Source: a virus (Duplodnaviria; Heunggongvirae; Uroviricota; Caudoviricetes). Taken from it: a stretch of 64,000 bases of DNA. The stretch is from positions 1 through 64,000 of IMG/VR virus record IMGVR_UViG_2713896899_000007. One strand, 5' to 3'. This document shows positions 6,701 through 62,730 of this stretch, piece by piece (positions within the stretch are counted from its first letter, which is position 1; each line of letters opens with the position of its first letter). The notes under the pieces were generated by a model. The model saw only the letters and a list, made by a program, of their open reading frames with translations. It was not told where the DNA came from and searched no databases. Made by a program: the position numbers and the translations under genes.

Positions 6701-8494
6701 GCGAACGCGCATAGGTTCGAGATCTGGTTCTGTAATTGTCCAGACACCGTTCAAAACAGGCGTTTCCGCTGACGACAGGGCTTTTGAAAACGTAACCTTT
6801 GTTATGTTTTCGCCAGTTTCAAGAACATCGCGTTCAACGATTTTGCCTTCCTGATTCAATATCCGAATAAAGCTGCCGCTTTTAGCTAACGACACAGGCG
6901 CATCGAGAGTGATGCTGTTTTTGGTAAACTCCACAATTCGACCGGAGTTACGTTTACCTGCACGATATTTGTTCTGAATCAGAACGGTTTCACCAGGCAT
7001 CAGAAATGAGGCGTCTAAGCCGGCAGTAAATGTAATTACATCCGACTCCATTCTGGCGGTATACAAAAGCCACAAACCAACTCGGTGAGCCTGGCCTCGG
7101 CTTGTACATCCAAATGCTACGACTTCTGTTTTACGCTCACCATAACGGCGCATTGCGTCCTGATCTTCAACGTACTCGATATTTTGCTTATAACCGTCCT
7201 CCTTGTTGTTGTAGGTTACGAGCGCAACGGATGGGCGATCTTTACGCGCAGAACCTTTATAGGTAAACAGTCCATCTTTGACGTTGGAGTTGGTAAACAT
7301 CATTACCGGATCTGATGGGCTATCCTGCATGATGTTAACCATGCCACCAGCCCAAAACACCATGCCGCGGAATGCACCGGCAATATCCTGAATTAATCGG
7401 TATGCGTCTTGTCGACTGGTGATCTGCGTATTGATTGCAAAGCGTTTCTCTTTACCCCCAAAGCCATCATCGACCTCTTCGTCACAATATCGACCAATCT
7501 GGTAGAGCTGGCCGAGGTCAATCATGGATTCCGACACAAATTGCCCAAGACCATACCGAGTATTGGTAAGCAAATCGTAGAGAATCCACGCAGGGTTTGA
7601 AGAAGACAACAGCTTAAAAGTACCGTCCCATACGCCGACATAAGTATTGGTGTATTCGTTGTAGTTTGACGGTACTCGGATTTTGATACCGCGCACCAAA
7701 TACGAACGGGAAGGCATTGTGCTACCAAACTGCTCTGAATTGACCTTCAAGCCAACAAGAGCAGAGTTAGGGTAGTTCATTGGCGTGTCGACAATCTCAC
7801 CGATGGAATCAACCCATGTGTCGTTGTAGAGGTACTGGCTACTGTTATCATCTGTAAGACGAATTACCCTAACCTTGTATGCACGACCAGGCTTAGGCAG
7901 TTTCAGCTCATAGCTACGGTAATACACGCCGGTTTTCTTTGCCGTTAGCGTGATATCAACGCTTTTCTCACCTTCTGCCACTACATCAGAAAATGTTGCG
8001 TCTCCGTTGGCGATCTGGAATTTGTACTTCACCGTAGTGCCGTTTGTATCGCCAGAGCTTTTATCAACGCTACGTAAAGAGGGGAATTTCATGATGACAC
8101 GAACGCGATCAGCTTCATCGTTATCGATTGAAACCGTAACGTCGTGTGTTTTTTTAAGCTGAATATTTACGGACTTAGGCGTTTCGACAAAATCAAAACC
8201 AGCCATTGGCGTCTGGTCTTGTGAGCCGTCACGAAAATCCCATGTAATACCGCTGAAGTTGGAAGAGCCATCTTCATTCAAGATCGGTAAATCGTCGATG
8301 AAGATCGACTTTGCGCCATTTACCAGGCCACCGATAACCCCCTCGCCAAGAAGGTCGAGGATGGCTGCCATAGCACGAGAATTGACAGTATCATCAGCTT
8401 CAACCGGTGTACGGCTGGAGCTTTTACTTTTCTTGCCACCAGCACCGGCAATAAGAAGCGGTAATTTTTTCTTCTTGAACTGTTCCATGTCCAA
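3764..8494 (-). CDS. host specificity / central tail fibre protein, lambda J-like, 1576 aa
   Basis: N-terminal and central segments match lambda J motifs (SRSYLVRGIKIRVPSNYN...GVWDGTFK, AFGCTSRGQAHRVGLWLL, KYVAGIALG...SQFLVQADRFG); position after I/K/L/M. Confidence 0.9.
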   Translation of the reverse strand: MDMEQFKKKKLPLLIAGAGGKKSKSSSRTPVEADDTVNSRAMAAILDLLGEGVIGGLVNGAKSIFIDDLPILNEDGSSNFSGITWDFRDGSQDQTPMAGFDFVETPKSVNIQLKKTHDVTVSIDNDEADRVRVIMKFPSLRSVDKSSGDTNGTTVKYKFQIANGDATFSDVVAEGEKSVDITLTAKKTGVYYRSYELKLPKPGRAYKVRVIRLTDDNSSQYLYNDTWVDSIGEIVDTPMNYPNSALVGLKVNSEQFGSTMPSRSYLVRGIKIRVPSNYNEYTNTYVGVWDGTFKLLSSSNPAWILYDLLTNTRYGLGQFVSESMIDLGQLYQIGRYCDEEVDDGFGGKEKRFAINTQITSRQDAYRLIQDIAGAFRGMVFWAGGMVNIMQDSPSDPVMMFTNSNVKDGLFTYKGSARKDRPSVALVTYNNKEDGYKQNIEYVEDQDAMRRYGERKTEVVAFGCTSRGQAHRVGLWLLYTARMESDVITFTAGLDASFLMPGETVLIQNKYRAGKRNSGRIVEFTKNSITLDAPVSLAKSGSFIRILNQEGKIVERDVLETGENITKVTFSKALSSAETPVLNGVWTITEPDLEPMRVRIVNIAQGETSGSFDITAVENNPSKYEAIDNGATLIPQNTTVLDPTYSKPSNLQITEGTYLSSPGNLSVKLTATWEGKSPEYWISWRRSDENNVSNWQSARVTEEQYEIVNVAENGRYDFQLYAVSFNGKKTEIISTVYQVLGTMTPPDAPTSLTAVGDYRNVILNWVNPDSVDLDHINVYASQTNNLDTAKLIAESASTTFTHAGLGDSETWYYWVRASNKRGMLSPPNSNLGTEATTRDVLSFLAGKITSSELGQALLEDINSKASQEAVDELNEHINQSVESLEGSVNDVKEDIAELDKQFSDNLADFEIKFNERSDALENAQTELKGEVSATIDKVNEAFEKIDATDAAIVEIENTVSEHDKALANTVEAIKAARDEAAALIAKESEARVEGDAANAKQLEVLQSTVEESSAAVEEMKKTVAEVDRASAELTTNIEALAKTNIDLALRQDEDQHKQMVNNAKIATTQKTFADDMSAMATKVEEIRVEIGEDIKASILEESTARADGDEALAKRVTQLQSKFEGDISAAISTEQEARTSADEALTTQITQLESKVSNDIVAAIKEEQEARATEDSALASQITQLQAKVDDDISAAIRSEQEARASGDSALAKQINQLQSKVDGDISAAITQEQEARASADQALSREINSLRAQTGTDIAAAVAVETKARTDADSALSTQITSLTAKANDLEASLARETTARADGDTALTKEVSSLKAQTAKDISAAVAVETQARTDADSALSSQITKLTSQYKEDIKAAVATETKTRTEQDAALATQITNLESQTAANISAAVTTETTARTQADNALSGRIDTLKAEVDGNTATIQQQATAIADTNKKVSTAWTLKMETSTSGGQKYVAGIALGIDTTGLSQFLVQADRFGLVNSVNGKITTPFVIENSIAYMNGAYIKDGTITNAKVGDLQSTNFVSGRSGWRFGKNGTLEINGNSGGNGRLVINGQRIDVYDDNNVLRVRIGLL
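4170..5300 (-). repeat. ~99-bp tandem coding repeats (about ten 33-aa heptad-like units) inside the J-like gene
   Basis: protein units DISAAIxxEQEARxxADxALxxQITxLxSKV repeat in tandem; matching DNA periodicity visible. Confidence 0.6.
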
Positions 8495-9911: not shown

Positions 9912-10608
9912 AATGGATCACACCGTCGGCAAAATAATTCCGACGCGCATTACAGGCGTCATAACGTTTTGTGCAGTAATCCGCACCAGACATAGACGTC
10001 TGCTGGTTATTTTTGTCGAAATATGGACCGGTATAGCCGCATTCTGGCCCTCGGTATTTCCACGGGCAGGTGTTTTTAATGATCTGACGATACGGCAGTT
10101 GCACCCCCATCAAATCGAACACACTGGACAATTCAAACTCGACAACCTGATGAGTTTCGAGAGTTTTCTGTTCGATAAACCACATTTCATCCGGGAAATG
10201 TTGGTTTGGATCTGCTGTTGGGTTGCCGTCTTTAAAATTAACGGCATCGAGGAAGCGAGCCAGCGTCATCTTGCGAATAATGCGGCAGCCAACAAGATCG
10301 TCGTTTGCCTGAACTTCCGCAGAGACGGTTCCGGCAAAGTTCGACACCTGAATTTTTGGACGTGGCAACGTTCCCTGGCCAGTTTTGTCAAAGCCTGATG
10401 CTTTGATTGGCCACGGCTCGTATGTCACTCCTTGCCAGACGACCGGTTGCATCAGTTCGTTTGTTCCGGCATGGAAGAATAGCTTCCCCCCTGAAGTTGT
10501 GTTCGACATATCCAGTACGAACAACTCAATGAGTGCAGAGGGAGATAAGCTCTGAATATCAGCTTTAATTCCCATTGTTTCATCCTTGAAATAAGTAGGC
10601 GCTAACAT
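9877..10608 (-). CDS. minor tail protein, lambda L-like
   Basis: VVWQGVTYEPWPIKASGF...ARFLDAVNF and C-terminal Cys cluster match lambda L. Confidence 0.8.
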   Translation of the reverse strand: MLAPTYFKDETMGIKADIQSLSPSALIELFVLDMSNTTSGGKLFFHAGTNELMQPVVWQGVTYEPWPIKASGFDKTGQGTLPRPKIQVSNFAGTVSAEVQANDDLVGCRIIRKMTLARFLDAVNFKDGNPTADPNQHFPDEMWFIEQKTLETHQVVEFELSSVFDLMGVQLPYRQIIKNTCPWKYRGPECGYTGPYFDKNNQQTSMSGADYCTKRYDACNARRNYFADGVIHFGGFIGATRYG

Positions 10609-10657
10609 CCTGTCAGCGCCACAATAATAGTAAATTAGTACTTACTTATCCAGATAC

Positions 10658-10993
10658 TTAAGCCTCAAATACTTGTCTGAATGGAGCGGTTAATACTGCG
10701 TACCCTTGATATCGCTTGACCGTATGACTGTCGCATACAACTACAATCCGTTTTCCTCTTGGATTAACCCAATAGAACGACTCAACACCTGCTCGCTCAG
10801 TCAGGAAGTCATCGATTGCATTAATTTCGTTGTATGATCTGGTAAAGGTTAACGACCATTCTTCTTTAATACGATTAAGACCTTGAGCCTGTCGCTGCTC
10901 GTAGTCATCACCAAAATTAAGTACCGTTACATTCGGTTTTACGCTTTTTTCAGATTCGTAATCTGGATACCAATTAAACGTTTGTCTTTCCAT
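10658..10993 (-). CDS. minor tail protein, lambda M-like
   Basis: 111 aa; position between tape measure and L. Confidence 0.65.
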   Translation of the reverse strand: MERQTFNWYPDYESEKSVKPNVTVLNFGDDYEQRQAQGLNRIKEEWSLTFTRSYNEINAIDDFLTERAGVESFYWVNPRGKRIVVVCDSHTVKRYQGYAVLTAPFRQVFEA

Positions 10994-11035
10994 CTCACAT
11001 CCTTGTGAGACAGCCCCGACCGGGGCAGTCGATAG

Positions 11036-14000
11036 TTAGTTACGTTGAGTGTTTGGGTTGAGTGATCCGCCAGGGCGTTTTTCTTGAGCGATAGTCTCAA
11101 GTACGACGGCTTTCACCCGTTTAGCAGCATTGTTCCATATGCTTTCTGTATCGCCGGATTCTGTCGTGCTACCGTCACTATGGACGTTGATCTCAATTGA
11201 TACAGGAGAAAGAACATTTCCGCCTCCACTCATACCATCGGTACTGAGCGTTACAGGGATTGTTCGGCCATCAGGCAATGGAACATACGCCTCATTCATA
11301 GAACCTTCCCCAAACAACGCTAATTGAGGTGAGTTAGCAATACCGCCTTTCTGGTATGCCCGGAGCGGGATCACGCCGTCTTTTCCGAATATTCCTCCAT
11401 TTGCAAACTTCGGGATTGCAGGAATGCCTTTAGTTCCGTCAGCCACACTGCTAGTTGCGGTTTTAGCAGAGCTTGATGTCACACTGTCGAAACCACCACC
11501 TGCCCATACTGAAACCAACCCAGATGCAACTGTCGCGCCGAAATTCAACCACTTATTACCAGAGCCGGAAGCATTAGCTCCAAGCATTGCAAACGCGGCA
11601 GACAGAGCACCGGTAACAGAGCTGAGGTTCTGCATCGAGAAGATGGAATCCTTCACTGCTTTTGTCTCAGCATCTTTGGCTTCGGTGCTATCAAATAGCC
11701 CTGATACCCAGCTACCAATCGCATTTGTTGCTGTGCCAATTGCGCTGGTGGTCTGCTGTGTCGTTTGCCCCAATCCAGTTACCGAACTGGACGTCTCCTT
11801 CGTGGCTTCTCCTACCGACTTGTCGCCGTTAACAGTGTTGCCCATTCGTACCCCTTGATTGGCAACGGCGGAAGCAACCCCGGTCAGCAAATTACCACTC
11901 TGTGAACTACCAGCTGCGGTGGTTCCCATCCCCAACATGTTCATTAGAGGCAGCGTGATCTGCGACTTCACGACCATATTGGTGATATCTTTCAAAATGG
12001 ACTGAGACAGGCTGGAGAAGCTCATCTTCCCGTTAATAACGAAATCAGTCAGGACATCAGTTAAGCCACTAAACAAATCAGTCCAGGTGCTTTCGATCTG
12101 CTCTGCCAGGTTTTCGTATTCCAGTGCCAACTTCTGCGTCGCAGTCCCCGTCTCTTTAATAAGCGCGGTATTGCCAGCAGCAATAAGTTGATTGATTTTC
12201 TTTGTATAAAGCGCCACGACTTTAGGATCAGACGCCTTATCACGAAGTTCTATCAACGCTTTGAGATTGCGGTTGTAGGTGTCTTCGAAATCAGCAACTT
12301 TCTCTTCACGAGACGGCGTATAGCCAGCACTAATAATGGAATCCGCCTCCGGTGCCCAAGTGGAGATCATCTGCTCAACATTGCGGCGATTAAACATCTC
12401 GCGATATTCAGGTGTCGCATTTTTGAGGTCCTCAAGACGTTTTTTCGCCTTGTCGATCATCTCTTGAGTGATGAACTCGTTAGGAACCGCATTAGCCAAA
12501 TCTGTCAGCGATTTCGTTGTATCGCGAAGAGACTGATCAAACGATACCGTAGCCTTAGAGCTTTCACCCATTTGCCCCATAAGCTGATCGGCTTTGTCCA
12601 GAGCCTTCTGGTATCCGGCTGCCAGTTTCTGTTGCGCTGCCTGTTCCTTCTTGGCCGCACGCTGCGAGGCGTTAGCTGATCGTTGGGCTGCTTTCTCGGC
12701 AGCTGCTGCATCCTGTTCACGAGCTTTAGTCAGTGCAGCAATGGCTGCGGCACGCTCTTCATCGCTCATTTTCTCCAGAGAGCTGGCACTGGATGCTTTC
12801 TGCAAATTAAGCTGCGTCTTGAGTTGTTTAGGCCCAATAATCGGCTTACCTTCGAAGTCCATCATCGGAGTGCCGTCAGGCAAAGTACGTTGATAAGTCG
12901 CAGAATCCATCTGGTTTCGCATATATTGCGCCAGCGCCTTCTGAGCTGCTTTATCAGTTGTACCTAACCCCAGAACAGTCCCCTGGTTTGACATTACGCC
13001 CTTACCAGTTTTGGCAGCGTTATCTCTCTCGAACTCTGCCTGAGTCAGTTCCTGAGCGACGACTTCCAAATTCTCCTGATAACCACGAATACTGCCTTGC
13101 AGTTTCTTGATCTGCTCGGTGTTTCCTTCCTTTTTCGCTTTTTCAAGCTGATCATTAAGAGTGGCTATTTGCCCCTCGACAGCATTCTTACGAGAAGAAA
13201 GTGAATCAACCAGTTTTTGCGCAGGCTCCAGATAGCTTTTGTTTACCGTTTCACGTAACGGTGCCAATAGTTTGTTCTTTTCGTCATCAGAAAGTGAATC
13301 GTCATCATTGATTTTTTGGATCTTCTCCAGAGCCTCTTGACGAGCTTTAGCGAATGTTGCCGCAAAGTCTCTATTCTCTTCCCGTATTTTCTCTATCTGT
13401 GATTCTGCCGCATCTTTTGCAAGACGTTTGGCTACAGCAATGTCTCCGCGTTCAATTGCCCCAGTAGTTTTATCGCGTTTCTTACGAAGGTCATTTAGCT
13501 CATTTTCTATACGCTTACGTTCATCCTGATTAATCTTTACTGTAGTTCCGGCCATACCCGGCCCATAAACCACCTTTTCGCCAGATTTTAACTCTTGTTC
13601 CTTTTGCGTGATTTGTTGCTCAAGACGCGCTTTATACTCCGCCATCTGTGCACGTTTGGCCGCTGTCATCGCCTCTGGTATTTTCCTAATCTCGTCAACG
13701 ACCTTTGAAGTTTCGCTGCGGAGCATGGTCATGTACGTGATTAGGCCAGCAACAGCTACAGTGGCAACTGTAAATGCTGCCCCTATAGGGTTTGCTGCAA
13801 TGAACGCCGTTAATCCAGCAAAAGCGCCTTTAAGCCCCGTAATCGCCCCACGGATGGCGAAAATAAGAGAGGGGATCGGAGCCAGCCCCATACGTGCCGC
13901 ACGATTGAATCGAGTTACTGCTGTAGCGCCGAGGTTAAATGGAGTCTGTATGGCGGTCGCCATCGTGGCAAAGGTGCTAACCATCTGGCTGCCAGCGCCA

Positions 14001-15622
14001 ACTCCCCCCATGATCCCTGCTCGCATCAGTTTGAACGCAACCATCGCGGCCACGACCTTACCGAGATTAATTACCAGCTCTTGGTTCTTTGCTAACCATT
14101 GAGCAAGCTGACGCAACCCATCGATTGCCGTCGTTAACCCCGAACCTAAAGAATTGGCAAACGAAATCCCTTCGGCGCTATTCATGATTGAAGCCAGTTC
14201 TTTCATCCCCTTTGATAGAGAATCCAGATATCCGGCCTGACCAACTCGATCAGCAAATAACGTGAATGACGTCTGAAGTTGCGCCAGCGCACCTGTGTAG
14301 GTTTGCATCATGTCTTTCGCTGCGTTCTCGTTCTCCGCACGCAGACCAACAAACATCAGAGACAACGCCTGCTTTGCCTCAACCGTACCGCTGGCAACGG
14401 CTTTAGTTAGTTCCCCCATAGTGATGCCTGCGGCGTCTGCCATTGCCTGCATCGCGTTAGGAACGGCTTCACCTAATTGCTGACGTAGCTCTTCCATTGA
14501 CACGACGCCCTTACCGGACATCTGCTGAACGGCCACAGCCGCACGTTTCAACAGCTCACTATCACCACCAAAACGAGCAACGGAGTCCACCAGCGCCTTC
14601 AGAGAACCATCGGTTGGATCTAAGCCAGCAGAACGAAACTTCACGAAGGAGTCTGTTAACGCCTGCATCGCGAACGGCGCATTTTGAGCCATGTCTACGA
14701 TGTACTTCATATCATCAGCGGCAGCCTGGCCAGGGTTGGACTTCTCCTTATTCAACCCTCGAAGCATCACCCGCATACGTTCCATTTCGGCCGCAGCTTC
14801 AACAATAGGCTTCTGCCACCCAAACATGATGTCAGTAACCGTTCTGGCTGCATCTCCGATCTCGCCAAGCAGGAAAATGTTGCCACGAAGGCCAGAGAAC
14901 ATACCTCCTTCGTTATTTTTACCGCTGTGGCCAGAAGCGCCGCTACGCTGCCTGCTACCGCTACCACCATCGCCACTTCCAGATGTACGAACGCGTACCG
15001 GCTTGCTAATCAGTTGCTGACGTCCGATAACTTCGTCCATCTGCTCACGAACCTTTTTCAGTCCCTCGGCAGCCTGACTCGTTGTGACACCCCAATTACT
15101 GAGTCGCTTCGTCGTGGTATTAAGGCGCGTATTCATGCCACTCACGGACGCAGAGGCTTCTTTGACCTCCGTACCAAAGCGGCTTGCGCTTTTGCTTGCA
15201 TAGGTCGCCCAATCAGAGAAATCATTTAGCTCTGATTGCACTTTACGTAATGACGCGGTGAGTTTATCTACTGAAGAAGTTGTCGTATCGACGCGCTCAA
15301 TCAGGGCTTTAAGACCAGAATTGAGGCTGGTGATGTTGCCACGCATTTTACGCGTAGCATCTGAAGCAAGCTCAAAACCGGCAGCTACATCCTGTAGTTT
15401 ATCTGCCGTAGAATCGAGCTTGCTTTCCAGAACGCCAATGATACGGGCGACCGAACCCAAAGAGCGTTCAAAGGTTTGGATTTTTTGAGCAGGCTTTGTT
15501 ACCTGCTCACCAAATCGAGTAAGCAGTTTCCCCGCACGATCGATTGACGCTGTAAACTGTTTGTCTTCCAGCGACAGGATAAACTCTACGTTTTGTGACA
15601 TTCCCTTGTCATCCTCTGCCAA
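11036..15622 (-). CDS. tail tape measure protein, 1528 aa
   Basis: very long helical protein with Gly/Ala-rich hydrophobic middle; sits between the G/T chaperone pair and M. Confidence 0.85.
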   Translation of the reverse strand: MAEDDKGMSQNVEFILSLEDKQFTASIDRAGKLLTRFGEQVTKPAQKIQTFERSLGSVARIIGVLESKLDSTADKLQDVAAGFELASDATRKMRGNITSLNSGLKALIERVDTTTSSVDKLTASLRKVQSELNDFSDWATYASKSASRFGTEVKEASASVSGMNTRLNTTTKRLSNWGVTTSQAAEGLKKVREQMDEVIGRQQLISKPVRVRTSGSGDGGSGSRQRSGASGHSGKNNEGGMFSGLRGNIFLLGEIGDAARTVTDIMFGWQKPIVEAAAEMERMRVMLRGLNKEKSNPGQAAADDMKYIVDMAQNAPFAMQALTDSFVKFRSAGLDPTDGSLKALVDSVARFGGDSELLKRAAVAVQQMSGKGVVSMEELRQQLGEAVPNAMQAMADAAGITMGELTKAVASGTVEAKQALSLMFVGLRAENENAAKDMMQTYTGALAQLQTSFTLFADRVGQAGYLDSLSKGMKELASIMNSAEGISFANSLGSGLTTAIDGLRQLAQWLAKNQELVINLGKVVAAMVAFKLMRAGIMGGVGAGSQMVSTFATMATAIQTPFNLGATAVTRFNRAARMGLAPIPSLIFAIRGAITGLKGAFAGLTAFIAANPIGAAFTVATVAVAGLITYMTMLRSETSKVVDEIRKIPEAMTAAKRAQMAEYKARLEQQITQKEQELKSGEKVVYGPGMAGTTVKINQDERKRIENELNDLRKKRDKTTGAIERGDIAVAKRLAKDAAESQIEKIREENRDFAATFAKARQEALEKIQKINDDDSLSDDEKNKLLAPLRETVNKSYLEPAQKLVDSLSSRKNAVEGQIATLNDQLEKAKKEGNTEQIKKLQGSIRGYQENLEVVAQELTQAEFERDNAAKTGKGVMSNQGTVLGLGTTDKAAQKALAQYMRNQMDSATYQRTLPDGTPMMDFEGKPIIGPKQLKTQLNLQKASSASSLEKMSDEERAAAIAALTKAREQDAAAAEKAAQRSANASQRAAKKEQAAQQKLAAGYQKALDKADQLMGQMGESSKATVSFDQSLRDTTKSLTDLANAVPNEFITQEMIDKAKKRLEDLKNATPEYREMFNRRNVEQMISTWAPEADSIISAGYTPSREEKVADFEDTYNRNLKALIELRDKASDPKVVALYTKKINQLIAAGNTALIKETGTATQKLALEYENLAEQIESTWTDLFSGLTDVLTDFVINGKMSFSSLSQSILKDITNMVVKSQITLPLMNMLGMGTTAAGSSQSGNLLTGVASAVANQGVRMGNTVNGDKSVGEATKETSSSVTGLGQTTQQTTSAIGTATNAIGSWVSGLFDSTEAKDAETKAVKDSIFSMQNLSSVTGALSAAFAMLGANASGSGNKWLNFGATVASGLVSVWAGGGFDSVTSSSAKTATSSVADGTKGIPAIPKFANGGIFGKDGVIPLRAYQKGGIANSPQLALFGEGSMNEAYVPLPDGRTIPVTLSTDGMSGGGNVLSPVSIEINVHSDGSTTESGDTESIWNNAAKRVKAVVLETIAQEKRPGGSLNPNTQRN

Positions 15623-19737: not shown

Positions 19738-20658
19738 TTATTCCTTTGCAGCAGTGACTTCTACGGTCGCTGTCGCTTTGTGGCTACCATCTTGGGTAGT
19801 AACCTCGATTGTGGCAGTACCAGCCGCAACGCCAGTTACAACACCGGTTTCGCTATCCACCGTTGCAAATTCGGTATTTTTGGATTCCCAAGTAACGGTT
19901 TTATTTGTTGCTCCTGCCGGCTCGACATTTGCGGTCAGCTGAACAGTTTTGTTTGCCTCAACGGTTGTGCTATTTGGGTCGATTTCGACGCCGGTAACAG
20001 CCACAACAGGCGCAGTTACTTCCACCGTTGCAGTTGCCTTTTTGCTGCCATCTTGGGAAACGATCTCAATCGTCGCAGTGCCAACTTCTACACCAGTAAC
20101 GTTCCCGCTCTGGTCTACCGTTGCCTTATCTTCATTTTTGGAAGACCAGGTAACAGTCTTATTCGTCGCATTTGACGGCTGAACATTCGCTTTCAGACTG
20201 ACTGATTTCCCTTTCTCAACAGAGGTTGAGTCTGGCGTTACCGTTACGGATTGAACGGCTACCGGATTTACGGTGACTTCCACTGAAGCGGAAAGCTGGG
20301 TTTCCTGATCAGTTGCAGTAATTTTTACTTTGCCTGGGGCTACGCCAGTTACTAATCCAGTGCCGTTAACGGTTGCAATTTGATCATTGGCTGACTTCCA
20401 GGTGAATGAACTGGCACTCTTACCCATACTAATACCTGCACTAAGTTGAACAGTTTTCCCAACCAAAACTGATGGTGAAGCCGGAGTTATGTTTACGGAT
20501 TGGGAGAGGGGAACCGCCTGCAAACAAGCAGATAGCTGACTTTGTTGCCGCTCGGTTAAAGGTTCATCGGAGATAGAATTGGTAAATCCGGCACGGCACA
20601 TATGCCCCGTAAAATCCGAAAATGCCTCTTCCGTAATCTTCATCTTTTGTTCTGGCAT
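19738..20658 (-). CDS. Ig-like (Big_2) repeat protein, probable head decoration protein
   Basis: three tandem Big_2-like units (KTVTW...ATVD...TGV..GTATI); immediately after capsid gene. Confidence 0.6.
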   Translation of the reverse strand: MPEQKMKITEEAFSDFTGHMCRAGFTNSISDEPLTERQQSQLSACLQAVPLSQSVNITPASPSVLVGKTVQLSAGISMGKSASSFTWKSANDQIATVNGTGLVTGVAPGKVKITATDQETQLSASVEVTVNPVAVQSVTVTPDSTSVEKGKSVSLKANVQPSNATNKTVTWSSKNEDKATVDQSGNVTGVEVGTATIEIVSQDGSKKATATVEVTAPVVAVTGVEIDPNSTTVEANKTVQLTANVEPAGATNKTVTWESKNTEFATVDSETGVVTGVAAGTATIEVTTQDGSHKATATVEVTAAKE

Positions 20659-37813: not shown

Positions 37814-38155
37814 TCAGGCTATTGCCATCACTGATGCTCTCTGAATTTCTTGTTGGGCCACGCGGTTAACTTCCATCAAAGCCAGTTCGAGCTGATGTTC
37901 CGGCCACATTCTTTGAAATGCCACCCAGCCTTTTCCACGCTGGCGACGAACATTCATTACATAACGAGTAAAGGTGTTTTTATCGAAAGACACCGCTGTT
38001 TCACGGAACAGACGAATAGAGGTTCCATTGGCAACGATGTCCAGCAAAGTTAATTGAGCAACTAGCGCAGGCTTCTCTTTTCGCTTCTGGTCTTTGTCCA
38101 GACCAAGAACCAATGATTTTTTCATCACAACTCCGTAAACAACTTGTTTTCTCAA
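37814..38155 (-). CDS. hypothetical protein (start possibly internal at MKKSLV)
   Basis: ORF with motif B at its 5' end. Confidence 0.4.
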   Translation of the reverse strand: MRKQVVYGVVMKKSLVLGLDKDQKRKEKPALVAQLTLLDIVANGTSIRLFRETAVSFDKNTFTRYVMNVRRQRGKGWVAFQRMWPEHQLELALMEVNRVAQQEIQRASVMAIA

Positions 38156-41397: not shown

Positions 41398-41550
41398 AAT
41401 AGAACGCAGAAAACAAATTGTTTTAGGGGCTGAGTAAATCAGAAGGGATTGCGTCTATATGAAAATGCCCAGCAATACGCTGGGCATTGTGAAGAATGGT
41501 TGTTTAGTTACTTAACTTGGTGGCCTGGTTTAGCACCAGCATCCGGGCTT
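41398..41550. repeat. direct repeat copy 2, overlapping the true 3' end of metG
   Basis: homologous to 40540-40690. Confidence 0.6.
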
Positions 41551-43541
41551 AACAGGAAGATATCTTTCCCGCCGGGGCCAGCAGCCATCACCATGCCTTC
41601 GGAGATACCGAAGCGCATTTTACGCGGAGCCAGGTTAGCCACCATAATTGTGTGACGACCAATCAGTGCCTGTGGGTCTGGATAAGCAGAACGGATGCCT
41701 GAGAAGACATTACGCTTTTCACCACCGAGATCCAGTGTCAGGCGCAACAGTTTGTCAGAACCTTCAACAAACTCCGCGTTTTCAATCAGCGCCACACGCA
41801 GGTCAACTTTGGCGAAGTCGTCAAAGGTGATGGTTTCCTGAATCGGGTCGTCAGCCAGTGGGCCAGTAACTGGCGCGGCAGTAGCTTTCACTTCTTCTTT
41901 GGATGCTTCCACCAGTGCTTCCACCTGTTTCATATCGATACGGTTATACAGTGCCTTGAACGGATTCACTTTATGGCCCAGCAGCGGTTGCTGGATACCA
42001 TCCCAGGTCAGTTCTGTATTCAGGAATGCTTCTGCACGTTCAGTCAGTTTCGGCAGTACCGGTTTCAGATACGTCATCAGCACGCGGAACAGGTTAATGC
42101 CCATAGAGCAAATCGCCTGCAGATCTGCATCGCGACCTTCCTGCTTCGCCACCACCCACGGAGCCTGTTCATCGACATAGCGGTTAGCCAGGTCAGCCAA
42201 TGCCATGATTTCACGGATAGCTTTACCAAATTCGCGGCTTTCCCATGCTTCGCCAATCACTTCAGCGGCATCAGTAAAGGTTTTGTACAGTTGCGGGTCA
42301 GCCAGTTCGCTTGCCAGCACGCCGTCAAAACGCTTGTTGATAAAGCCTGCATTACGGGAGGCCAGGTTAACCACTTTGTTAACAATATCGGCATTCACTC
42401 GCTGAACGAAATCCTCCAGGTTGAGATCGATATCATCAATGCGCGAAGAGAGTTTCGCAGTGTAGTAGTAACGCAGGCTGTCAGCGTCAAAATGATTCAG
42501 CCAGGTGCTGGCTTTAATAAAGGTGCCGCGAGACTTGGACATCTTCGCACCGTTCACCGTCACATAGCCATGAACAAACAGGTTGGTCGGCTTGCGGAAG
42601 TTGCTGCCTTCCAGCATGGCAGGCCAGAACAGACTGTGGAAGTAAACGATATCTTTACCGATGAAGTGGTACAGCTCGGCGGTGGAGTCTTTCTTCCAGT
42701 ATTCATCGAAGCTGGTGGTATCGCCGCGCTTGTCGCACAGATTCTTGAAGGAACCCATGTAGCCAATCGGTGCGTCCAGCCAGACGTAGAAATATTTACC
42801 CGGCGCGTTCGGAATTTCAAAACCGAAGTAAGGTGCGTCGCGGGAGATATCCCACTGTTGCAGACCAGATTCAAACCACTCCTGCATTTTGTTTGCCACC
42901 TGCTCCTGCAACGCACCGCTGCGGGTCCATGCCTGCAACATTTCGCTGAAAGAGGGCAGATCAAAGAAGAAGTGTTCAGAATCACGCATTACCGGGGTAG
43001 CACCAGAAACCACCGATTTCGGCTCGATCAGTTCAGTCGGGCTGTAGGTCGCGCCACAAACTTCACAGTTATCGCCGTATTGATCTGGCGCTTTACATTT
43101 CGGGCAGGTGCCTTTCACAAAACGATCCGGCAGGAACATGCCTTTTTCCGGGTCGTACAACTGAGAGATAGTGCGGTTTTTAATAAAACCGTTCTCTTTC
43201 AGGCGAGTATAAATAAGCTCAGACAGCTGGCGGTTCTCTTCGCTGTGCGTCGAGTGATAGTTGTCATAGCTGATGTTAAAGCCTGCGAAATCAGTCTGGT
43301 GTTCCTGACTCATTTCGCCAATCATCTGCTCCGGTGTGATACCAAGTTGCTGTGCTTTCAGCATGATCGGCGTACCGTGGGCATCGTCGGCACAGATGAA
43401 ATTAACCTCGTGGCCGCGCATTCGCTGGTAACGAACCCAGACATCAGCCTGGATGTGCTCCAGCATATGGCCGAGGTGGATTGAGCCGTTAGCGTACGGC
43501 AGCGCGCACGTCACCAGAATTTTCTTCGCGACTTGGGTCAT
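41508..43541 (-). CDS. metG: methionyl-tRNA synthetase (host gene)
   Basis: 677-aa product with HIGH-type motif ([11 protein letters not shown]) and KMSKS; near-identical to enterobacterial MetG from MTQVAKK; the longer track ORF is an upstream in-frame extension. Confidence 0.95.
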
Positions 43542-43698
43542 AGTAGGCATTACTTCTTTGTAGTGAAAAGGGGCTTGATAGTAACAAAATGGCCTTATGT
43601 CTGCCATGTGATAACAGCATTTCTCATAAATGATTAAATGTCGTAGCTGGAGTACACTACAAGGCGACAATTGCGCAAATTAAAATAAAGGAGACGGG

Positions 43699-44799
43699 AT
43701 GAGCGAGTCCAAATCGCCGGATGCCCTGAGAGCAATGGTAGCCGGTACGCTGGCTAATTTTCAGCACCCAACCCTGAAACACAACCTGACTACGCTTAAA
43801 GCGTTACACCATGTTGCGTTGATGGATGACACACTGCATGTCGAACTAATCATGCCTTTCGTGTGGAATAAGCCTTTTGAAGACCTGAAAGAGCAATGTA
43901 GTGGTGATCTGCTCCGTATCACTGGCGCAAAGGCTATTGACTGGAAGCTGTCGTACAACATTGCCACGCTTAAGCGCGTCAAAAACCAACCAGGCATTAA
44001 TGGTGTTAAGAATATTATCGCCGTAAGCTCAGGCAAGGGCGGTGTAGGCAAATCGTCCACAGCAGTAAACTTGGCACTGGCGTTGGCTGCTGAAGGTGCG
44101 AAAGTTGGTATTTTGGATGCCGATATCTACGGGCCATCAATACCAACCATGCTGGGCGCGGAAAACCAACGTCCAACCTCACCGGACGGTACTCACATGG
44201 CACCTATCATGTCTCATGGCCTGGCAACCAATTCAATTGGCTATCTGGTCACCGACGACAATGCAATGGTGTGGCGTGGACCGATGGCCAGCAAGGCGCT
44301 GATGCAGATGTTGCAGGAAACACTGTGGCCTGATCTGGACTATCTCGTTCTCGATATGCCGCCGGGCACTGGTGATATTCAGTTGACGCTGGCGCAGAAC
44401 ATTCCTGTAACTGGTGCGGTTGTGGTAACTACGCCGCAAGACATCGCGCTGATCGATGCGAAGAAAGGCATTGTGATGTTCGAAAAAGTCGAAGTGCCAG
44501 TACTGGGTATCGTTGAAAACATGAGTGTGCATATTTGCAGTAACTGCGGTCATCACGAGCCAATTTTTGGCACCGGTGGCGCACAGAAACTGGCCGAGAA
44601 ATACAACACGCAGTTGTTAGGCCAAATGCCACTTCATATCTCTCTTCGTGAAGATCTGGATAACGGAACACCAACCGTTATTAGTCGTCCAGATAGTGAA
44701 TTTACGGCTATTTATCGTGACCTCGCAGATCGCGTTGCTGCCCAAATGTATTGGCAAGGTGAAGTAATACCTGGCGAAATCGCATTCCGCGCAGTGTGA
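43699..44799 (+). CDS. apbC: Fe-S cluster carrier ATPase ApbC/Mrp (host gene)
   Basis: deviant Walker A SGKGGVGKS and CxxC motif; divergent from metG as in E. coli. Confidence 0.95.
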   Translation: MSESKSPDALRAMVAGTLANFQHPTLKHNLTTLKALHHVALMDDTLHVELIMPFVWNKPFEDLKEQCSGDLLRITGAKAIDWKLSYNIATLKRVKNQPGINGVKNIIAVSSGKGGVGKSSTAVNLALALAAEGAKVGILDADIYGPSIPTMLGAENQRPTSPDGTHMAPIMSHGLATNSIGYLVTDDNAMVWRGPMASKALMQMLQETLWPDLDYLVLDMPPGTGDIQLTLAQNIPVTGAVVVTTPQDIALIDAKKGIVMFEKVEVPVLGIVENMSVHICSNCGHHEPIFGTGGAQKLAEKYNTQLLGQMPLHISLREDLDNGTPTVISRPDSEFTAIYRDLADRVAAQMYWQGEVIPGEIAFRAV

Positions 44800-44836
44800 T
44801 AAAAAGGTGGTGCATTGCACCACCTAAACAGTTCTC

Positions 44837-45226
44837 CTACATCACAGGACAATCATCAAACTCGCCACTTCTTGCGTCGTTGATAATGTGAGTGATCACA
44901 CCAAACACGGCATTGCTGCCCGTGCATCCATCGTCATCCTTTGGCAATGCTTCCTTCTTACCAGTTCTTAAATCCTCCAGATGCTGACGTGGATACTTCC
45001 GGTATCTTTTTACGCGATATTCCCCATCCAGAGCGCATACAAGCAGAGAACCATCAACCGGGGTAAGTGAGGAATCGACCACCAGCAATGCGCCCTGCAA
45101 TATTCCCTCACGATGATGGCTGTCAGCCGCTCTCATGAAGTAGGTCGCTGAAGGATGTCTAATTATCTGCTGATCAAGAGAAATACGGCTCTCAGCATAA
45201 TCCGCCGCAGGAGAAGGGAAGCCCAT
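44837..45226 (-). CDS. UmuD'-like S24 peptidase-fold protein (HumD-like, naturally lacks the UmuD N-terminal arm)
   Basis: begins MGFPSPAADY, i.e. at the residue after the UmuD Cys24-Gly25 cleavage site; Ser and Lys of the S24 dyad present. Confidence 0.7.
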   Translation of the reverse strand: MGFPSPAADYAESRISLDQQIIRHPSATYFMRAADSHHREGILQGALLVVDSSLTPVDGSLLVCALDGEYRVKRYRKYPRQHLEDLRTGKKEALPKDDDGCTGSNAVFGVITHIINDARSGEFDDCPVM

Positions 45227-45398
45227 AGCGTTTTGCCCTCAATACTGTTCATTTATACAGTATACATGAAAGAAGCTCACTCAGTGCAACTGATCGGTAC
45301 ATAGCACCAGACAAAGGAACATTATTTTCTCGAACAAGAAAAGGTAGAAAACAAATTGTTTAAGGCCACAGCTAGTGGCCTTAATGGAGAAGGGATGC

Positions 45399-45962
45399 TT
45401 ATTGGCTATGGCTAAAAATCAAATGAGACACTTCATTTGGTTGTAGCTCGTCAAGATCCGGGGCCACAAAACCTTTTCCGAAAGACTTCACAAGTGATTC
45501 ACCTGCCGCATCATTGTCACCTATTACGCGAAAGTCATACGGCAGCATTGCCAGTTGACGACGTAATCCTGCTGAGAAAGTCGAACCTAACAGCGCCCAC
45601 GAATTTCCGCCCGCGTTGTGCACTGCTGCACTTTTAAAAATCGACTCAGTTATCCATATCGGTCCATCTTTTAAAGGAAGATAGGTTCCCCATAGTAGCT
45701 GTCTGCCGTGCGCACGTGTGAAATACCGGGCCATCTTCGGATTGCTATGCTGCTTAGGAGCGCCTGGTCTGTATGTCTGATACCCGGCCAACATCCCATC
45801 AAACCTGTATAGAGGGAATGTAACAACTCCTTCGCTTTCATCGATCCACTGTCTATATGGATGCACATCATGGCGGTAGTTACGAGTTAGCAAATGAGCT
45901 TCCAGCTTTCCAAATTTAGTCATAACTTCGCATCCCTCATAACACTTCCCATTTATCACCAT
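45399..45962 (-). CDS. hypothetical protein, possible TOPRIM-like fold (tentative)
   Basis: VIGDNDAAG motif; start may be internal (MTKFGKLE). Confidence 0.35.
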   Translation of the reverse strand: MVINGKCYEGCEVMTKFGKLEAHLLTRNYRHDVHPYRQWIDESEGVVTFPLYRFDGMLAGYQTYRPGAPKQHSNPKMARYFTRAHGRQLLWGTYLPLKDGPIWITESIFKSAAVHNAGGNSWALLGSTFSAGLRRQLAMLPYDFRVIGDNDAAGESLVKSFGKGFVAPDLDELQPNEVSHLIFSHSQ

Positions 45963-54324: not shown

Positions 54325-54750
54325 TTAGAGATAAGCATCCAGTGACAACTGAAGCGCCTGGGCGATCTTTTTCAGTGCCTGCTCTTCTTGTTCACCAATG
54401 CCGTCCTGGTCGGCAATATCAAGGCACAGACACAGAACATCGACCGCCTCTGGAGTGCCCGCAATATCAGCCAGCTCACGCATAGCCTGTGCATTAGCGG
54501 AACGAGGGGACGCTTCGTAACGAGCACGGATATTGGCGCTCATTTGGGCAATCTCACCAGCAAACGGAGAAAACGCAGGCAGAGCTGCAATTGTCTTCTC
54601 AAGAATGGCAATTTCTTTTGCGTCACATGTGCCGTCGGCATAGGAGATCATGTACGCGCCCCACACGGTGGCCTCAACCGCATCACGGTTCTCCATTTTT
54701 TTGACTTCGATAACTGCTTTACGAGTTTTCTTTTTGAAGAAACCTAACAT
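54325..54750 (-). CDS. TerB-like domain protein (tentative)
   Basis: two ADG/ADQDG...E motifs as in TerB/DjlA-N family. Confidence 0.4.
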   Translation of the reverse strand: MLGFFKKKTRKAVIEVKKMENRDAVEATVWGAYMISYADGTCDAKEIAILEKTIAALPAFSPFAGEIAQMSANIRARYEASPRSANAQAMRELADIAGTPEAVDVLCLCLDIADQDGIGEQEEQALKKIAQALQLSLDAYL

Positions 54751-60067: not shown

Positions 60068-60712
60068 CTAATGAACGGTTACTCGGCCACAGAACCGGTT
60101 TTCTATCTTTTCTACAGCGTTATCTAGCATTCTCATCACTGATCTGGCTCTTGCTTCAACCGTGCGATATCGGTTGGAAACGACGAAGGTTTGCAGATCT
60201 CCCCTTTGCGGATGCAGGTGAATTTTTGTCAGTTCCCCGCACATCAACGCATCAATACGAGCGACATACAGACGGTCTAATGATGCTCGTTGTGATCGCA
60301 AGTAATCTCGCTCTGAGAGAGCGACTCCCGGGCGTAAGCCAGCAATGGCGTTAAAGTTTGAAATAGCAGTTTTGTGGCAAAACTTTTCGATATCGAGGGC
60401 TAACTCAATACACCGATCTTCATTTGTATGGCCGACCAAATCCAACGTGTAGGCCATAACATCAGCAGGTGTGCGATCGATAACAAAGCCTTCAACACCA
60501 CGCGTAAGTAGCTCTATATGCTTTGCTATTTCCATTTGAATCTGAAGCCGCTCATATAGAGGCATAGACTCACCTACTCGAACACCGAGGCGGCTCATCA
60601 AACTTCCGACACCAGCATCCACGTAAGGGATTCCGTAATGTTTGTCGATATATTTAGCCAGGGTTGTTTTCCCACTGCCCTGAGCACCAGTGATCCCAAT
60701 CCGGTAATCCAT
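60068..60712 (-). CDS. P-loop nucleotide kinase (probable dNMP kinase)
   Basis: Walker A GAQGSGKTT at N-terminus; placement beside DHFR and ThyA-like genes. Confidence 0.6.
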   Translation of the reverse strand: MDYRIGITGAQGSGKTTLAKYIDKHYGIPYVDAGVGSLMSRLGVRVGESMPLYERLQIQMEIAKHIELLTRGVEGFVIDRTPADVMAYTLDLVGHTNEDRCIELALDIEKFCHKTAISNFNAIAGLRPGVALSERDYLRSQRASLDRLYVARIDALMCGELTKIHLHPQRGDLQTFVVSNRYRTVEARARSVMRMLDNAVEKIENRFCGRVTVH

Positions 60713-61188
60713 TACGACCTTCTGTATACGATCTGCGAAAAGCCAGGCTCTTCCTCGCTGGCTCGTTGGGTATAAGCTGTTTCAACAGGCACAAAGCCTA
60801 AGTTACGCATCATGCTTGCCGGGAAGAATGCATCGGCGTTTGGTACATCAACGCCGATGTGGGAGAGCCAAATCTCTTCAACATGCGGCATGAATAGCGA
60901 GTAAATTTGTTCCCCGCCAATCACCCACACAGGCTCTGGTAATCGCAACACATCATCCACACCAGCAGGGTAGAATCCATTTGGTACAAAGCCATGAGAG
61001 CGCGTCAAAACGAGGTTATGACGCTCTGGAAGAGGGCGTTTGAGACTTTCCATCGTTTTACGCCCCATAACGACAGTGGCGTTTTTGGTGAGTCTCTTAA
61101 ATAGCTTCAGATCGGTAGAACAACGCCAGGGCAGTTCGTTCGCTATGCCGATCTCATAGTTACGGCCAACAGCAGCTATCATCTTCAT
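60712..61188 (-). CDS. dihydrofolate reductase
   Basis: MIAAVGRNYEIG...LPW...VMGRKT..S...PLP.R.N.VL...VIGG pattern of FolA. Confidence 0.8.
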   Translation of the reverse strand: MKMIAAVGRNYEIGIANELPWRCSTDLKLFKRLTKNATVVMGRKTMESLKRPLPERHNLVLTRSHGFVPNGFYPAGVDDVLRLPEPVWVIGGEQIYSLFMPHVEEIWLSHIGVDVPNADAFFPASMMRNLGFVPVETAYTQRASEEEPGFSQIVYRRS

Positions 61189-61646
61189 TTGCTCACCTCA
61201 TAGATGACCGGTCTATGATGAGAGTCAGCTAAAGCGGCACGGAGTCGAGGATCGTGCACCAGCGCAGCGATAAGCAGATCGCCTTTATGCTCCGCTAATG
61301 TGCGCTTAATATGCTTCTCATAACTGGTGCCATTCGGTACAAGATGAAGCCAGTCGTAATCAACGCCAAAATCTTTCAGCCATCGTTTAGTGGGCGCTTC
61401 AAGAGTTTCAGAGCGGCTACTGATAAGCACCACTTCAGCCCCTGAGCGAGCAAAACCACGCAACATACGGCTGGTGGGGAAAATGAGTTCATCACCGGCA
61501 ATGAGCTGGCCTGCATCCGCGTCAGATACAGATTTACGATGGCTGGTATTTGCCAGCACACCTTCAATTTCGCATAAGACATACATACCTCTTGCCATAT
61601 CACACCGCCACTGGAACCTTGATCCACGGTAGAGGGTCATAGCCAA
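61185..61646 (-). CDS. HAD-like fold protein with E-x-E in place of the D-x-D nucleophile motif (tentative)
   Basis: YVLCEIEGVL, VVLISSRSE, GDLLIAALVHD; start may be internal. Confidence 0.35.
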   Translation of the reverse strand: MAMTLYRGSRFQWRCDMARGMYVLCEIEGVLANTSHRKSVSDADAGQLIAGDELIFPTSRMLRGFARSGAEVVLISSRSETLEAPTKRWLKDFGVDYDWLHLVPNGTSYEKHIKRTLAEHKGDLLIAALVHDPRLRAALADSHHRPVIYEVSK

Positions 61647-62730
61647 GAATCAGAATATCGTCCCATTTGAAATCATCCAGCTCAGACCATTCATGAGGGA
61701 AAATAACGACCGGATCTGAATGCTCTGGAGCCTGTCGTTTCATTAGCTCACACACACTTTCCATGTGGTTATTGTATAAATGCACGTCAAAGCCAAAATG
61801 CACAAATGCACCGGCCATGTGACCCGTAATCTTCGCGAGAAAATGAGTGAGAATGCCATAGCCAGCAATATTGAATGGCATACCAACAAAAGTGTCTACG
61901 CTACGCTGTACGAGGCAGGAGTTGAGGATGCGTTTGGGGATTCCAAGTTCATCCAGTTCAGTTTCAGTAACACTGCCGTCCATCTCCAGATCGTATAGCA
62001 TCTTGGTGTAGATAGACTCGTAACCGAGGCGACTGTGTTGAAGACCAATGTCTGTTGCCATCGTTAAACGAGTTTCAAAATCAAGCTCACGACTCCACAA
62101 AGAGAAGGCAAAGTGGCAAGGTGGCAGTTTCATATCCTCAAGCTCGCCTACGTTCCATGCGTTAAGCATGATGCGACGATCGGTAGGGTTCGTGCGCAGT
62201 GTATCGACAATACGCTGTAGCTGATCGATTTCACGGGACAGCACTACGCGATCTTCACTGATACCCAGGTATCCCTCGACTTTGTACCCGCGTTCACGGA
62301 AAGTATCGATCTTGCTCAGATATTCACTATGGCTCACGATGCGGGTATCTTCCCATCGACGCCACTGCTTACCGTAAACCGGCCCCAAATCGCCATTCTC
62401 ATCGGCCCATGCATCCCAAATTTTAACGCCGTTATCCTTGAGAAATTGGATGTTGCCCGTGCCTTTCAGATACCACTCAAGTTCGACAAGTAGTGGCTTA
62501 AGATTTACCGCCTTTCCAGAAATAAGCGGCACAGTCCCACCAGTAAGCATGTAGTAAGAGGGAACGTAGCAGGTGCTTAAAGTACCAGTGCCTGTGCGAT
62601 CATCAGCCTGCACGCCGCTTTTAAGCACCGTCTCAATAACTTTTGCATACGATGCGTTTGTTACCTGACCGTTCGTATGCTCACGATTCAAAAGGAGTGA
62701 CACAAAAACCTCACAAAGATAAGTAACCAC
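61600..62730 (-). CDS. thymidylate synthase family enzyme (ThyA-like) with two large insertions
   Basis: DRTGTGT, WADENGDLGPVYGKQWRRW, PPCHFAFSLW (catalytic Cys), MPFNIAGYG (Asn, uracil-type), DVHLYNNH. Confidence 0.8.
   Translation of the reverse strand: MVTYLCEVFVSLLLNREHTNGQVTNASYAKVIETVLKSGVQADDRTGTGTLSTCYVPSYYMLTGGTVPLISGKAVNLKPLLVELEWYLKGTGNIQFLKDNGVKIWDAWADENGDLGPVYGKQWRRWEDTRIVSHSEYLSKIDTFRERGYKVEGYLGISEDRVVLSREIDQLQRIVDTLRTNPTDRRIMLNAWNVGELEDMKLPPCHFAFSLWSRELDFETRLTMATDIGLQHSRLGYESIYTKMLYDLEMDGSVTETELDELGIPKRILNSCLVQRSVDTFVGMPFNIAGYGILTHFLAKITGHMAGAFVHFGFDVHLYNNHMESVCELMKRQAPEHSDPVVIFPHEWSELDDFKWDDILILGYDPLPWIKVPVAV

Follow-up and report, generated by a model that had tools for sequence, protein, structure and literature searches.

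How might a UmuD'-like protein act when its gene encodes no N-terminal arm and has no umuC partner, and in what kind of genome does such a gene reside? In E. coli, UmuD needs RecA*-dependent cleavage at Cys24-Gly25 to become UmuD'. A UmuD' dimer joins UmuC to form Pol V, which also needs RecA*. The locus studied here encodes a protein that starts with MGFPSPAADY. An earlier note, made from the DNA sequence, took it to be a pre-processed relative of UmuD' resembling HumD of phage P1, encoded by the last gene of an early operon beside the host gene apbC. The window referred to below is the whole stretch of DNA that was analysed, 64,000 nucleotides in length.

The gene is an ortholog of P1 humD

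The gene, referred to as humD, has the following position.

44837..45226, minus strand: humD coding sequence (CDS), 129 aa, with the stop codon TAG at 44837-44839

The product passes the NCBIfam equivalog model NF051876, which is titled "HumD family translesion DNA polymerase" and has P1 HumD as its type member. Its score of 219.8 bits clears the cutoff of 120 (E 8e-66), and residues 1-129 align with positions 1-129 of the 129 positions of the model. In a BLASTP comparison with the HumD CDS of the P1 record AF234173, 118 of the 129 residues are identical without gaps (91%). The gene is a HumD ortholog and not merely HumD-like, so that the resemblance to P1 HumD drawn in the earlier note was, if anything, understated.

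Other profiles place the protein in the same fold family. It matches PF00717 with 37.9 bits (cutoff 23.3) and the UmuD' structure 1umu_A with an E value of 6.7e-23, and it also matches 1i4v_A. The model for full-length UmuD as a Pol V subunit, NF007621, gives 87 bits, below its cutoff of 110. A reading as full-length UmuD was rejected on this score and on the lack of both an arm and a umuC operon. With 27.2 bits, the LexA/CI-type model TIGR00498 stays below its cutoff of 110.95, and only the C-terminal domain is matched. A LexA/CI-type repressor was also rejected, as the 129 residues comprise the S24 domain only, with neither a DNA-binding domain nor a cleavable linker.

Among phage records searched by tblastn, the product has 100% identity with CYRAN_98 of Escherichia phage Cyrano and 91-93% with its counterparts in P1, RCS47, SJ46, and D6. 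A 100% identical CDS is present on plasmid p009_B, where its RefSeq label is S24 family peptidase. On five of the listed related plasmids, the same locus carries the RefSeq label "HumD family translesion DNA polymerase". The gene is therefore already known: HumD has its own NCBIfam model, and close plasmid relatives carry the name at this locus. In P1, HumD was reportedly characterised by McLenigan et al. in 1999.

The protein database contains 561 clusters of humD homologs at E<=1e-5, nearly all of 126-130 aa. MGFPSP occupies residues 1-6 in 106 of the 120 best of these clusters. A few entries are longer because their start was called further upstream, so that the translation passes through the operator region. 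Between this humD and P1 humD, dS is 0.87 and dN is 0.042, giving a dN/dS of 0.048. The product is under strong purifying selection by this comparison.

Translation starts at the equivalent of UmuD Gly25

The match of the humD product to full-length UmuD, taken from the Pol V entry 8gmt_B, spans UmuD residues 25-136. Gly2 of the product is paired there with UmuD residue 25, and in 1umu_A, a UmuD' chain, with residue 1. Gly2 is therefore the equivalent of Gly25, the residue exposed by RecA-mediated cleavage. Alignment with UmuD reveals no Cys-Gly cleavage site in the humD product.

The frame upstream of the ATG reads NEQY-stop-GQNA-M, with an in-frame TGA at 45241-45239, five codons upstream. 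This stop codon leaves humD without an N-terminal arm. The four codons from the TGA to the ATG (GGG CAA AAC GCT) include no start codon, and no remnant of the UmuD arm was found in the 174 nt upstream translated in all three frames. The open reading frame, the upstream TGA and the Gly2/Gly25 alignment all agree with the proposed post-cleavage start, and the search for an in-frame extension with its own start codon met the TGA first. A putative ribosome-binding site lies over this stop codon.

45236..45240, minus strand: Shine-Dalgarno-like GAGGG, 9 nt before the ATG, overlapping the in-frame upstream TGA (45239-45241)

Active-site motif and C-terminal tail

In the family alignment, Ser36 and Lys73 of the humD product align with Ser60 and Lys97 of UmuD, and both residues are present in P1 HumD too. 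Where UmuD, LexA, and CI have GDSM, the HumD family has x-[S/T]-H-[F/Y/H]-R-E and has lost one residue. In the copy studied, the motif is A-DSHHRE. The nucleophile position was compared in 106 clusters of the family: 61 have Ser, 43 have Thr, and 2 have Ala. Lys is kept in 104 of them. Thus the Ser/Lys dyad said to be retained is indeed aligned in this copy, but the GDSM motif around the nucleophile is remodelled and the nucleophile itself varies across the family. This pattern suggests that HumD proteins have no further need of catalysis.

The protein ends in a conserved tail, NDARSGEFDDCPV, at residues 116-129, which includes RSGEFDDCPV and is found family-wide. The 13-residue C-terminal tail of HumD is absent from UmuD. 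Given the remodelled motif and the extra tail, HumD is not a simple copy of UmuD' and may have additional or different partners. A stronger version of this idea, which we consider unlikely, is that the HumD family has become a specialised, catalytically retired subunit whose acidic tail may serve in escape from the host UmuD/ClpXP control that acts on UmuD', or in contacts with other partners such as the element's own DnaE or RecA. Were it true, the HumD of SSU5-like elements would be a strongly stress-induced factor, with a rise of about 30-fold in macrophages, and would shape mutagenesis or element replication independently of the regulation of host umuD.

A predicted LexA-controlled cassette

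The regions flanking the humD CDS contain four predicted regulatory elements.

45243..45262: predicted LexA (SOS) box, TACTGTATAAATGAACAGTA as read on the minus strand, 16 nt upstream of the ATG
45259..45289, minus strand: possible promoter, with TTGCAC at 45289-45284, a 19-nt spacer, and TATACT at 45264-45259
45360..45384, minus strand: terminator-like hairpin of 10 bp after the toprim gene (-16.2 kcal/mol, z -4.16)
44805..44825, minus strand: putative intrinsic-terminator hairpin, 9 bp and GC-rich (-15.3 kcal/mol, z -3.71)

The sequence TACTGTATAAATGAACAGTA alone in the 64-kb window fits the 20-nt LexA consensus with no more than three mismatches, and none of 100 shuffles matched. It is identical to the site described in the P1 record as "LexA binding site in the regulatory region of lxr and humD". 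CTGT-N8-ACAG is also found upstream of the humD homologs in N15, phiKO2, and HK140, and in the phiKO2 record the lexA site upstream of the homolog was annotated by its authors. PMC9603915 calls humD LexA-regulated. A second LexA-like CTGT-N8-ACAG in the window, at 37996-38011, was discarded; it has a GC-rich spacer, and about one chance match is expected per window.

The candidate -10 hexamer TATACT would overlap the LexA box, and TTGCAC is conserved in P1. A scan with the sigma-70 consensus found no promoter upstream of humD. Its only match, at 45126-45099, lies inside the humD CDS and is within chance expectation. The pair TTGCAC-19-TATACT was not called because its spacer is outside the range of 16-18 nt. 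Its proposed role as the humD promoter is weak, because the scan found no sigma-70 site upstream.

The upstream toprim gene, at 45399-45962, is on the same strand as humD, and the hairpin at 45360-45384 stands between the two genes. The T-tract of this hairpin is imperfect (ACAATTTGTTTT). At the other end, read along the humD strand, UUUUUAUCAC comes after the hairpin at 44805-44825; along the strand of the convergent apbC gene, it is UAAACAG, which has no U-tract. By sequence, this hairpin would belong to humD more than to apbC. The last base of the apbC stop codon is 44799, which leaves 37 bp to the humD stop codon, and the gap of about 40 bp with a hairpin reported in the earlier note is confirmed at this length.

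Nucleotide homology with P1-like plasmids, at about 85-87%, extends only from 44838 to about 45276. The segment in common comprises the CDS, the ribosome-binding site, and the LexA box, with a further 14 nt or so on its far side. P1 does not share the humD terminator, but N15 and phiKO2 have analogous ones. These predicted elements make humD a self-contained cassette composed of a LexA operator, a ribosome-binding site, a CDS, and a terminator.

Expression of the identical gene in strain LF82

The Cyrano element of LF82 encodes an identical HumD protein, CYRAN_98. Its RNA level is available from the re-analysed LF82 RNA-seq data in S1 Table of PMC9928086, of which the part used here covers CYRAN_74-123 as log2 values in two replicates. 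The condition codes follow the accompanying text of that paper, with BLB taken as stationary phase in LB and MB as inside macrophages, at 1 h and 6 h. The values for CYRAN_98 are 7.44 and 6.94 in BLB, 9.56 and 9.89 in B1, 9.14 and 9.03 in B6, 11.37 and 11.30 in MB1, and 12.12 and 12.31 in MB6 (PMC9928086). In the same table, humD RNA in macrophages is about 30-fold above LB and about 8-fold above the 6-h non-macrophage control, and in MB6 it is the highest among CYRAN_74-123. Basal humD RNA in LB is already about 15 times the median of the element.

The neighbouring genes behave differently in this part of the data set. From BLB to MB6, apbC is flat (6.7 and 6.4 to 5.9 and 6.0), metG goes from 4.2 and 3.9 to 3.2 and 3.1, and the upstream gene CYRAN_97 rises by about 2 log2 units, from 5.0 to 7.0 (PMC9928086). 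The increase of humD is thus uncoupled from both neighbours, which supports an autonomous unit. The macrophage is described in PMC9928086 as a genotoxic, SOS-inducing environment, and the profile supports humD as a damage-inducible unit, although the RNA profile alone does not prove control by LexA.

The window is part of a phage-plasmid with a captured metG-apbC pair

Positions 40-64000 of the window align with positions 36984-100960 of p009_B as one collinear piece at 99.9% identity. p009_B is a circular plasmid of 110,182 bp from E. coli strain 9 and is close to the phage Cyrano/pLF82, an SSU5-like phage-plasmid. It contains genes for tail, capsid, portal, terminase, ParB, RepB, integrase, and tRNAs, and it also encodes dnaE, recA, nrdAB, and thyA. 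The element encodes a DnaB-like helicase as well. According to PMC9928086, Cyrano (pLF82) is an SSU5-like siphovirus phage-plasmid with about 5.5 copies per cell that forms virions and is induced 39-fold by ciprofloxacin.

Two genes of chromosomal type lie next to humD.

43699..44799, plus strand: apbC (mrp), element-borne, convergent with humD
41508-43541, minus strand: metG, element-borne, forming with apbC a captured chromosomal pair

In related records, metG-apbC is flanked on both sides by phage-plasmid genes. The pair is about 90% identical to the chromosomal pair, which is present in all 5426 of 5426 complete E. coli genomes, and 95-100% identical on about 220 plasmids. As the window belongs to a 110-kb phage-plasmid, apbC and metG are cargo inside the element and not a host flank, and the difference between the chromosomal and the plasmid identities identifies apbC as a captured second copy. 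The apbC gene had been assigned to the host, an assignment that the 99.9% collinearity with a circular plasmid, the element genes on both sides, and the identity of about 90% to the chromosome contradict.

Homology to the chromosome ends at about 44792-44795, just before the end of the apbC open reading frame. The joint between apbC and humD is found in 208 records and in 207 of 5426 genomes, and the matches listed are plasmids of about 109-112 kb. DNA resembling humD is present in 777 of 5426 complete E. coli genomes. Judged by these alignments, the apbC/humD boundary is an internal mosaic joint. A literature search found no paper linking SSU5 with metG.

The element encodes no detectable UmuC

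A tblastn search of the window and of p009_B for a UmuC homolog, with an approximate E. coli UmuC sequence as the query, gave nothing better than E 4. No Y-family polymerase is present among the 131 PGAP features of p009_B. The absence of umuC after humD, first remarked from the local gene order, therefore holds for the window and for the whole matching plasmid in both searches. PADLOC models at E<=0.01 matched neither HumD, nor the toprim protein, nor the next upstream protein, and a role as part of a defence system was set aside on this result.

Proposed mechanism

With 91% identity to P1 HumD, the same operator, and no umuC, a LexA-controlled UmuD' mimic is the most likely reading. The gene very probably encodes a HumD-type UmuD' homolog on an SSU5-like E. 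coli phage-plasmid, an SOS-induced mimic that would use host UmuC.

In the undamaged cell, host LexA on the box, which would overlap or abut the promoter, would hold humD expression down. DNA damage would derepress humD through RecA*-driven cleavage of LexA. As its translation begins at the counterpart of UmuD Gly25, the HumD protein would be ready with no need for RecA-mediated self-cleavage. It would then dimerise and join UmuC of the host, since the element encodes none, in a Pol V-like translesion polymerase that would still depend on RecA*. The net effect would be removal of the slow UmuD-to-UmuD' step, with earlier or stronger damage tolerance and mutagenesis. Earlier tolerance would aid replication of the damaged element and of the host.

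Dimerisation, binding of UmuC and RecA*, and mutagenesis by this humD copy are expected by analogy with work on P1 HumD and with the biology of Pol V. P1 HumD is said, in the study of McLenigan et al. from 1999, to restore mutagenesis in cleavage-deficient backgrounds, to dimerise, and to bind UmuC and RecA filaments; good complementation was reportedly obtained only from a high-copy plasmid. Pol V with a UmuD'-type subunit still requires RecA* and host UmuC, which limits the proposal that HumD could prime mutagenesis independently of SOS cleavage. That proposal stands for the RecA-mediated cleavage step, but expression of the gene looks LexA-controlled. Citing papers present P1 HumD as a functional homolog of UmuD', with a role in facilitating SOS mutagenesis.

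Alternative explanations

HumD could instead act mainly on partners other than host UmuC: induced by SOS, it might slow or modulate the replisome, the DnaE-type polymerase of the element included, or it could use its tail to escape UmuD/ClpXP control. The products of umuD bind Pol III subunits, which is the basis of the replisome analogy (cf. Silva et al. 2012). The element has its own dnaE, DnaB-like helicase, and recA but no umuC, the tail segment RSGEFDDCPV is HumD-specific and strongly conserved, and the active-site motif is remodelled. However, the 91%-identical P1 protein is cited, in the papers mentioned, as a functional UmuD' homolog. A role specific to DnaE cannot be general, because P1, N15, and the lambdoid carriers of the HumD family encode no DnaE. 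This explanation is rated improbable. Still less credit is given to an active S24 peptidase that would use Ser36 and Lys73 to cleave host UmuD or a LexA/CI-like repressor in trans. UmuD-like proteins reportedly undergo intermolecular cleavage (McDonald et al., 1998), and the two residues are kept here and in P1 HumD, with Lys in 104 of 106 clusters. Against this, Ser is replaced by Thr in 43 and by Ala in 2 of the 106 clusters, leaving Ser in 61, and GDSM is replaced with a deletion. The variation and the loss of GDSM fit relaxed constraint on catalysis, and a trans-acting peptidase is very improbable.

The two remaining explanations concern the origin of the locus. The convergent arrangement with apbC, whose stop is 37 bp away, and the upstream genes on the same strand gave some ground for viewing humD as the last gene of a prophage early operon at a junction with the host chromosome, beside host apbC. 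This is exceedingly improbable: the window and a circular 110-kb plasmid are collinear at 99.9%, genes of the phage-plasmid are found on the far side of metG as well, the joint recurs on 208 plasmid records, and apbC has only about 90% identity with its chromosomal counterpart. Plasmid collinearity and this level of apbC identity refute the host junction. The operon part of the claim is probably wrong too, as the hairpin at 45360-45384 and a LexA box of its own precede humD, and its RNA level is independent of its neighbours, including CYRAN_97. Least credible of all is that humD is what remains of a decaying umuDC operon and has no function. It has neither an N-terminal arm nor a umuC partner, as a remnant might, but the dN/dS of 0.048 at a dS of 0.87 and the same start in nearly all of the 561 homolog clusters argue otherwise. 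The regulatory box is conserved, and humD expression is both high and inducible. The dN/dS, the conserved start, and the expression exclude a dead remnant.

Comparison with known systems

The LexA-controlled UmuD' mimic proposed here is closest to P1 HumD (AAQ14181, AF234173). Both proteins have 129 residues, an MGFPSP start, and the C-terminal tail, and both genes have an identical 20-nt LexA box. In both cases, humD is carried by a phage-plasmid and has no umuC. However, the settings differ. In P1, humD is divergent from lxr, followed by phd-doc, whereas here humD follows a toprim gene and a hairpin and converges on captured apbC. The distance from the LexA box to the ATG is 16 nt here and 19 nt in P1. 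The carrier here is an SSU5-like siphovirus phage-plasmid and not a P1-like myovirus, and the nucleotide identity between the two humD genes is only about 85%.

E. coli UmuD' (1UMU, 1I4V, 8GMT) has the same S24 fold, an N terminus at Gly25, and Ser and Lys residues that align with those of HumD. UmuD' arises by RecA-mediated cleavage, whereas HumD is made directly by translation. Compared with UmuD, HumD is about 44% identical in the multiple alignment. It has A-DSH in place of GDSM, an insertion near residues 99-104, and a C-terminal tail of 13 aa, and its gene is not in an operon with umuC.

More distant relatives in N15 (gp26), phiKO2 (Gp23), HK140, HK639, and other phages have 60-71% identity to the humD product by tblastn. 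N15 gp26, phiKO2 Gp23, and HK140 gp28, given as 66-73% identical, are likewise truncated and stand-alone, with CTGT-N8-ACAG upstream and a terminator downstream. These homologs behave as morons beside tail-fibre, partition, or att regions. Unlike the copy studied here, they have Thr for Ser at the nucleophile (ATHY, NTCY), and some members of this group adjoin a dinI homolog.

Implications

The window represents a phage-plasmid and hence contains no host junction. Within it, humD is an SOS-boxed cassette common to P1-like and SSU5-like phage-plasmids. In the Crohn's-associated strain LF82, humD has the highest expression among CYRAN_74-123 inside macrophages, which makes it a reasonable candidate for a part in stress-induced mutagenesis in a setting of clinical relevance.

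Conserved features of the HumD family

In the alignment of 106 HumD-family clusters, the column of the S24 nucleophile (within window residues 33-41) is occupied by Ser in 61 clusters, Thr in 43 and Ala in 2, and the GDSM motif is gone across the family. The C-terminal tail RSGEFDDCPV (within window residues 116-129) is acidic and strongly conserved, whereas UmuD lacks it. The variable nucleophile position, the loss of GDSM and the conserved tail together suggest that HumD is a subunit that has given up catalysis and bears an interaction tail peculiar to the family.

Several database HumD entries (P0023, P0024, P0031, P0048, P0070, P0071 and P0082) are 148-167 residues long and extended at the N terminus, as in MDIQYLYCVF...NMGFPSP. 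The extensions derive from upstream start calls and look like mis-annotated starts rather than genuine arms.

Expression of humD in LF82

Cyrano (pLF82) is a close SSU5-like relative in E. coli LF82, in which humD is CYRAN_98. Its expression in LB is 148 normalised counts (PMC9928086 S1 Table, sheet Cyrano), above both the moron cutoff of 49 used in that study and the value for CYRAN_99 (92). Despite exceeding the cutoff, CYRAN_98 does not appear in the main-text moron table, whose stated criteria exclude genes typical of a phage, the master regulator among them. The passages of PMC9928086 covered here contain no comment on the strong macrophage induction of CYRAN_98.

Genes flanking humD

Three genes lie near humD in the window:
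41508-43541, minus strand, metG
43699-44799, plus strand, apbC
45399-45962, minus strand, stand-alone toprim-domain protein of 174-187 residues, immediately upstream of humD

The metG and apbC genes (41508-44799) form a divergent captured pair aboard the phage-plasmid. The window pair shares about 90% identity with its chromosomal counterpart, which all E. coli genomes carry, and 95-100% identity with copies on approximately 220 plasmids. Chromosomal homology stops slightly before the end of the apbC reading frame. A literature search found no paper that discusses SSU5-like elements carrying an additional methionyl-tRNA synthetase. The apbC gene of LF82 (CYRAN_99) is listed as a moron expressed at 9 times background in PMC9928086; its label there, 'MinD', is a mis-annotation.

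The toprim protein matches phage primase profiles in their middle only, the phrog_849 match spanning profile positions 142-333 of 435 (E 1.9e-53). Pfam and NCBIfam searches with it return zero matches. The protein appears to be a primase that has been truncated or split. Its gene carries no annotation in the Cyrano record.

Nucleotide metabolism and replication genes

The element also carries the following genes:
60712-61188 and 61600-62703 of the window, dihydrofolate reductase and thymidylate synthase, phage nucleotide-metabolism block
6501-7574 and 10545-14063 of p009_B, outside the window, the element's own RecA and DnaE-type Pol III alpha

The dihydrofolate reductase gene adjoins that of thymidylate synthase within this block and is labelled 'trimethoprim-resistant DfrA51' in RefSeq; a housekeeping phage enzyme is tallied as a resistance gene. 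Cyrano is mildly induced by trimethoprim, according to PMC9928086.

Other LexA-like sites

Besides the humD box, the window contains a sole other exact CTGT-N8-ACAG:
37996-38011, CTGTTTCACGGAACAG, with a GC-rich spacer

About one such match is expected in the window by chance (mean 0.97), so this sequence is probably not a LexA site. Beyond the window, a further CTGT-N8-ACAG occurs at 19759-19774 of the plasmid record (L004), where the integrase and glutaredoxin genes flank it.

Modules in common with P1

In P1 (locus L003), divergent lxr precedes humD and phd-doc comes after it, whereas neither accompanies humD on the SSU5-like element. The element has P1 modules besides humD, namely TciA/TciB-like and TerB-family ones (window 54325-54750 and neighbours). 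These common modules point to cassette exchange between the SSU5-like and P1 phage-plasmid lineages of E. coli.
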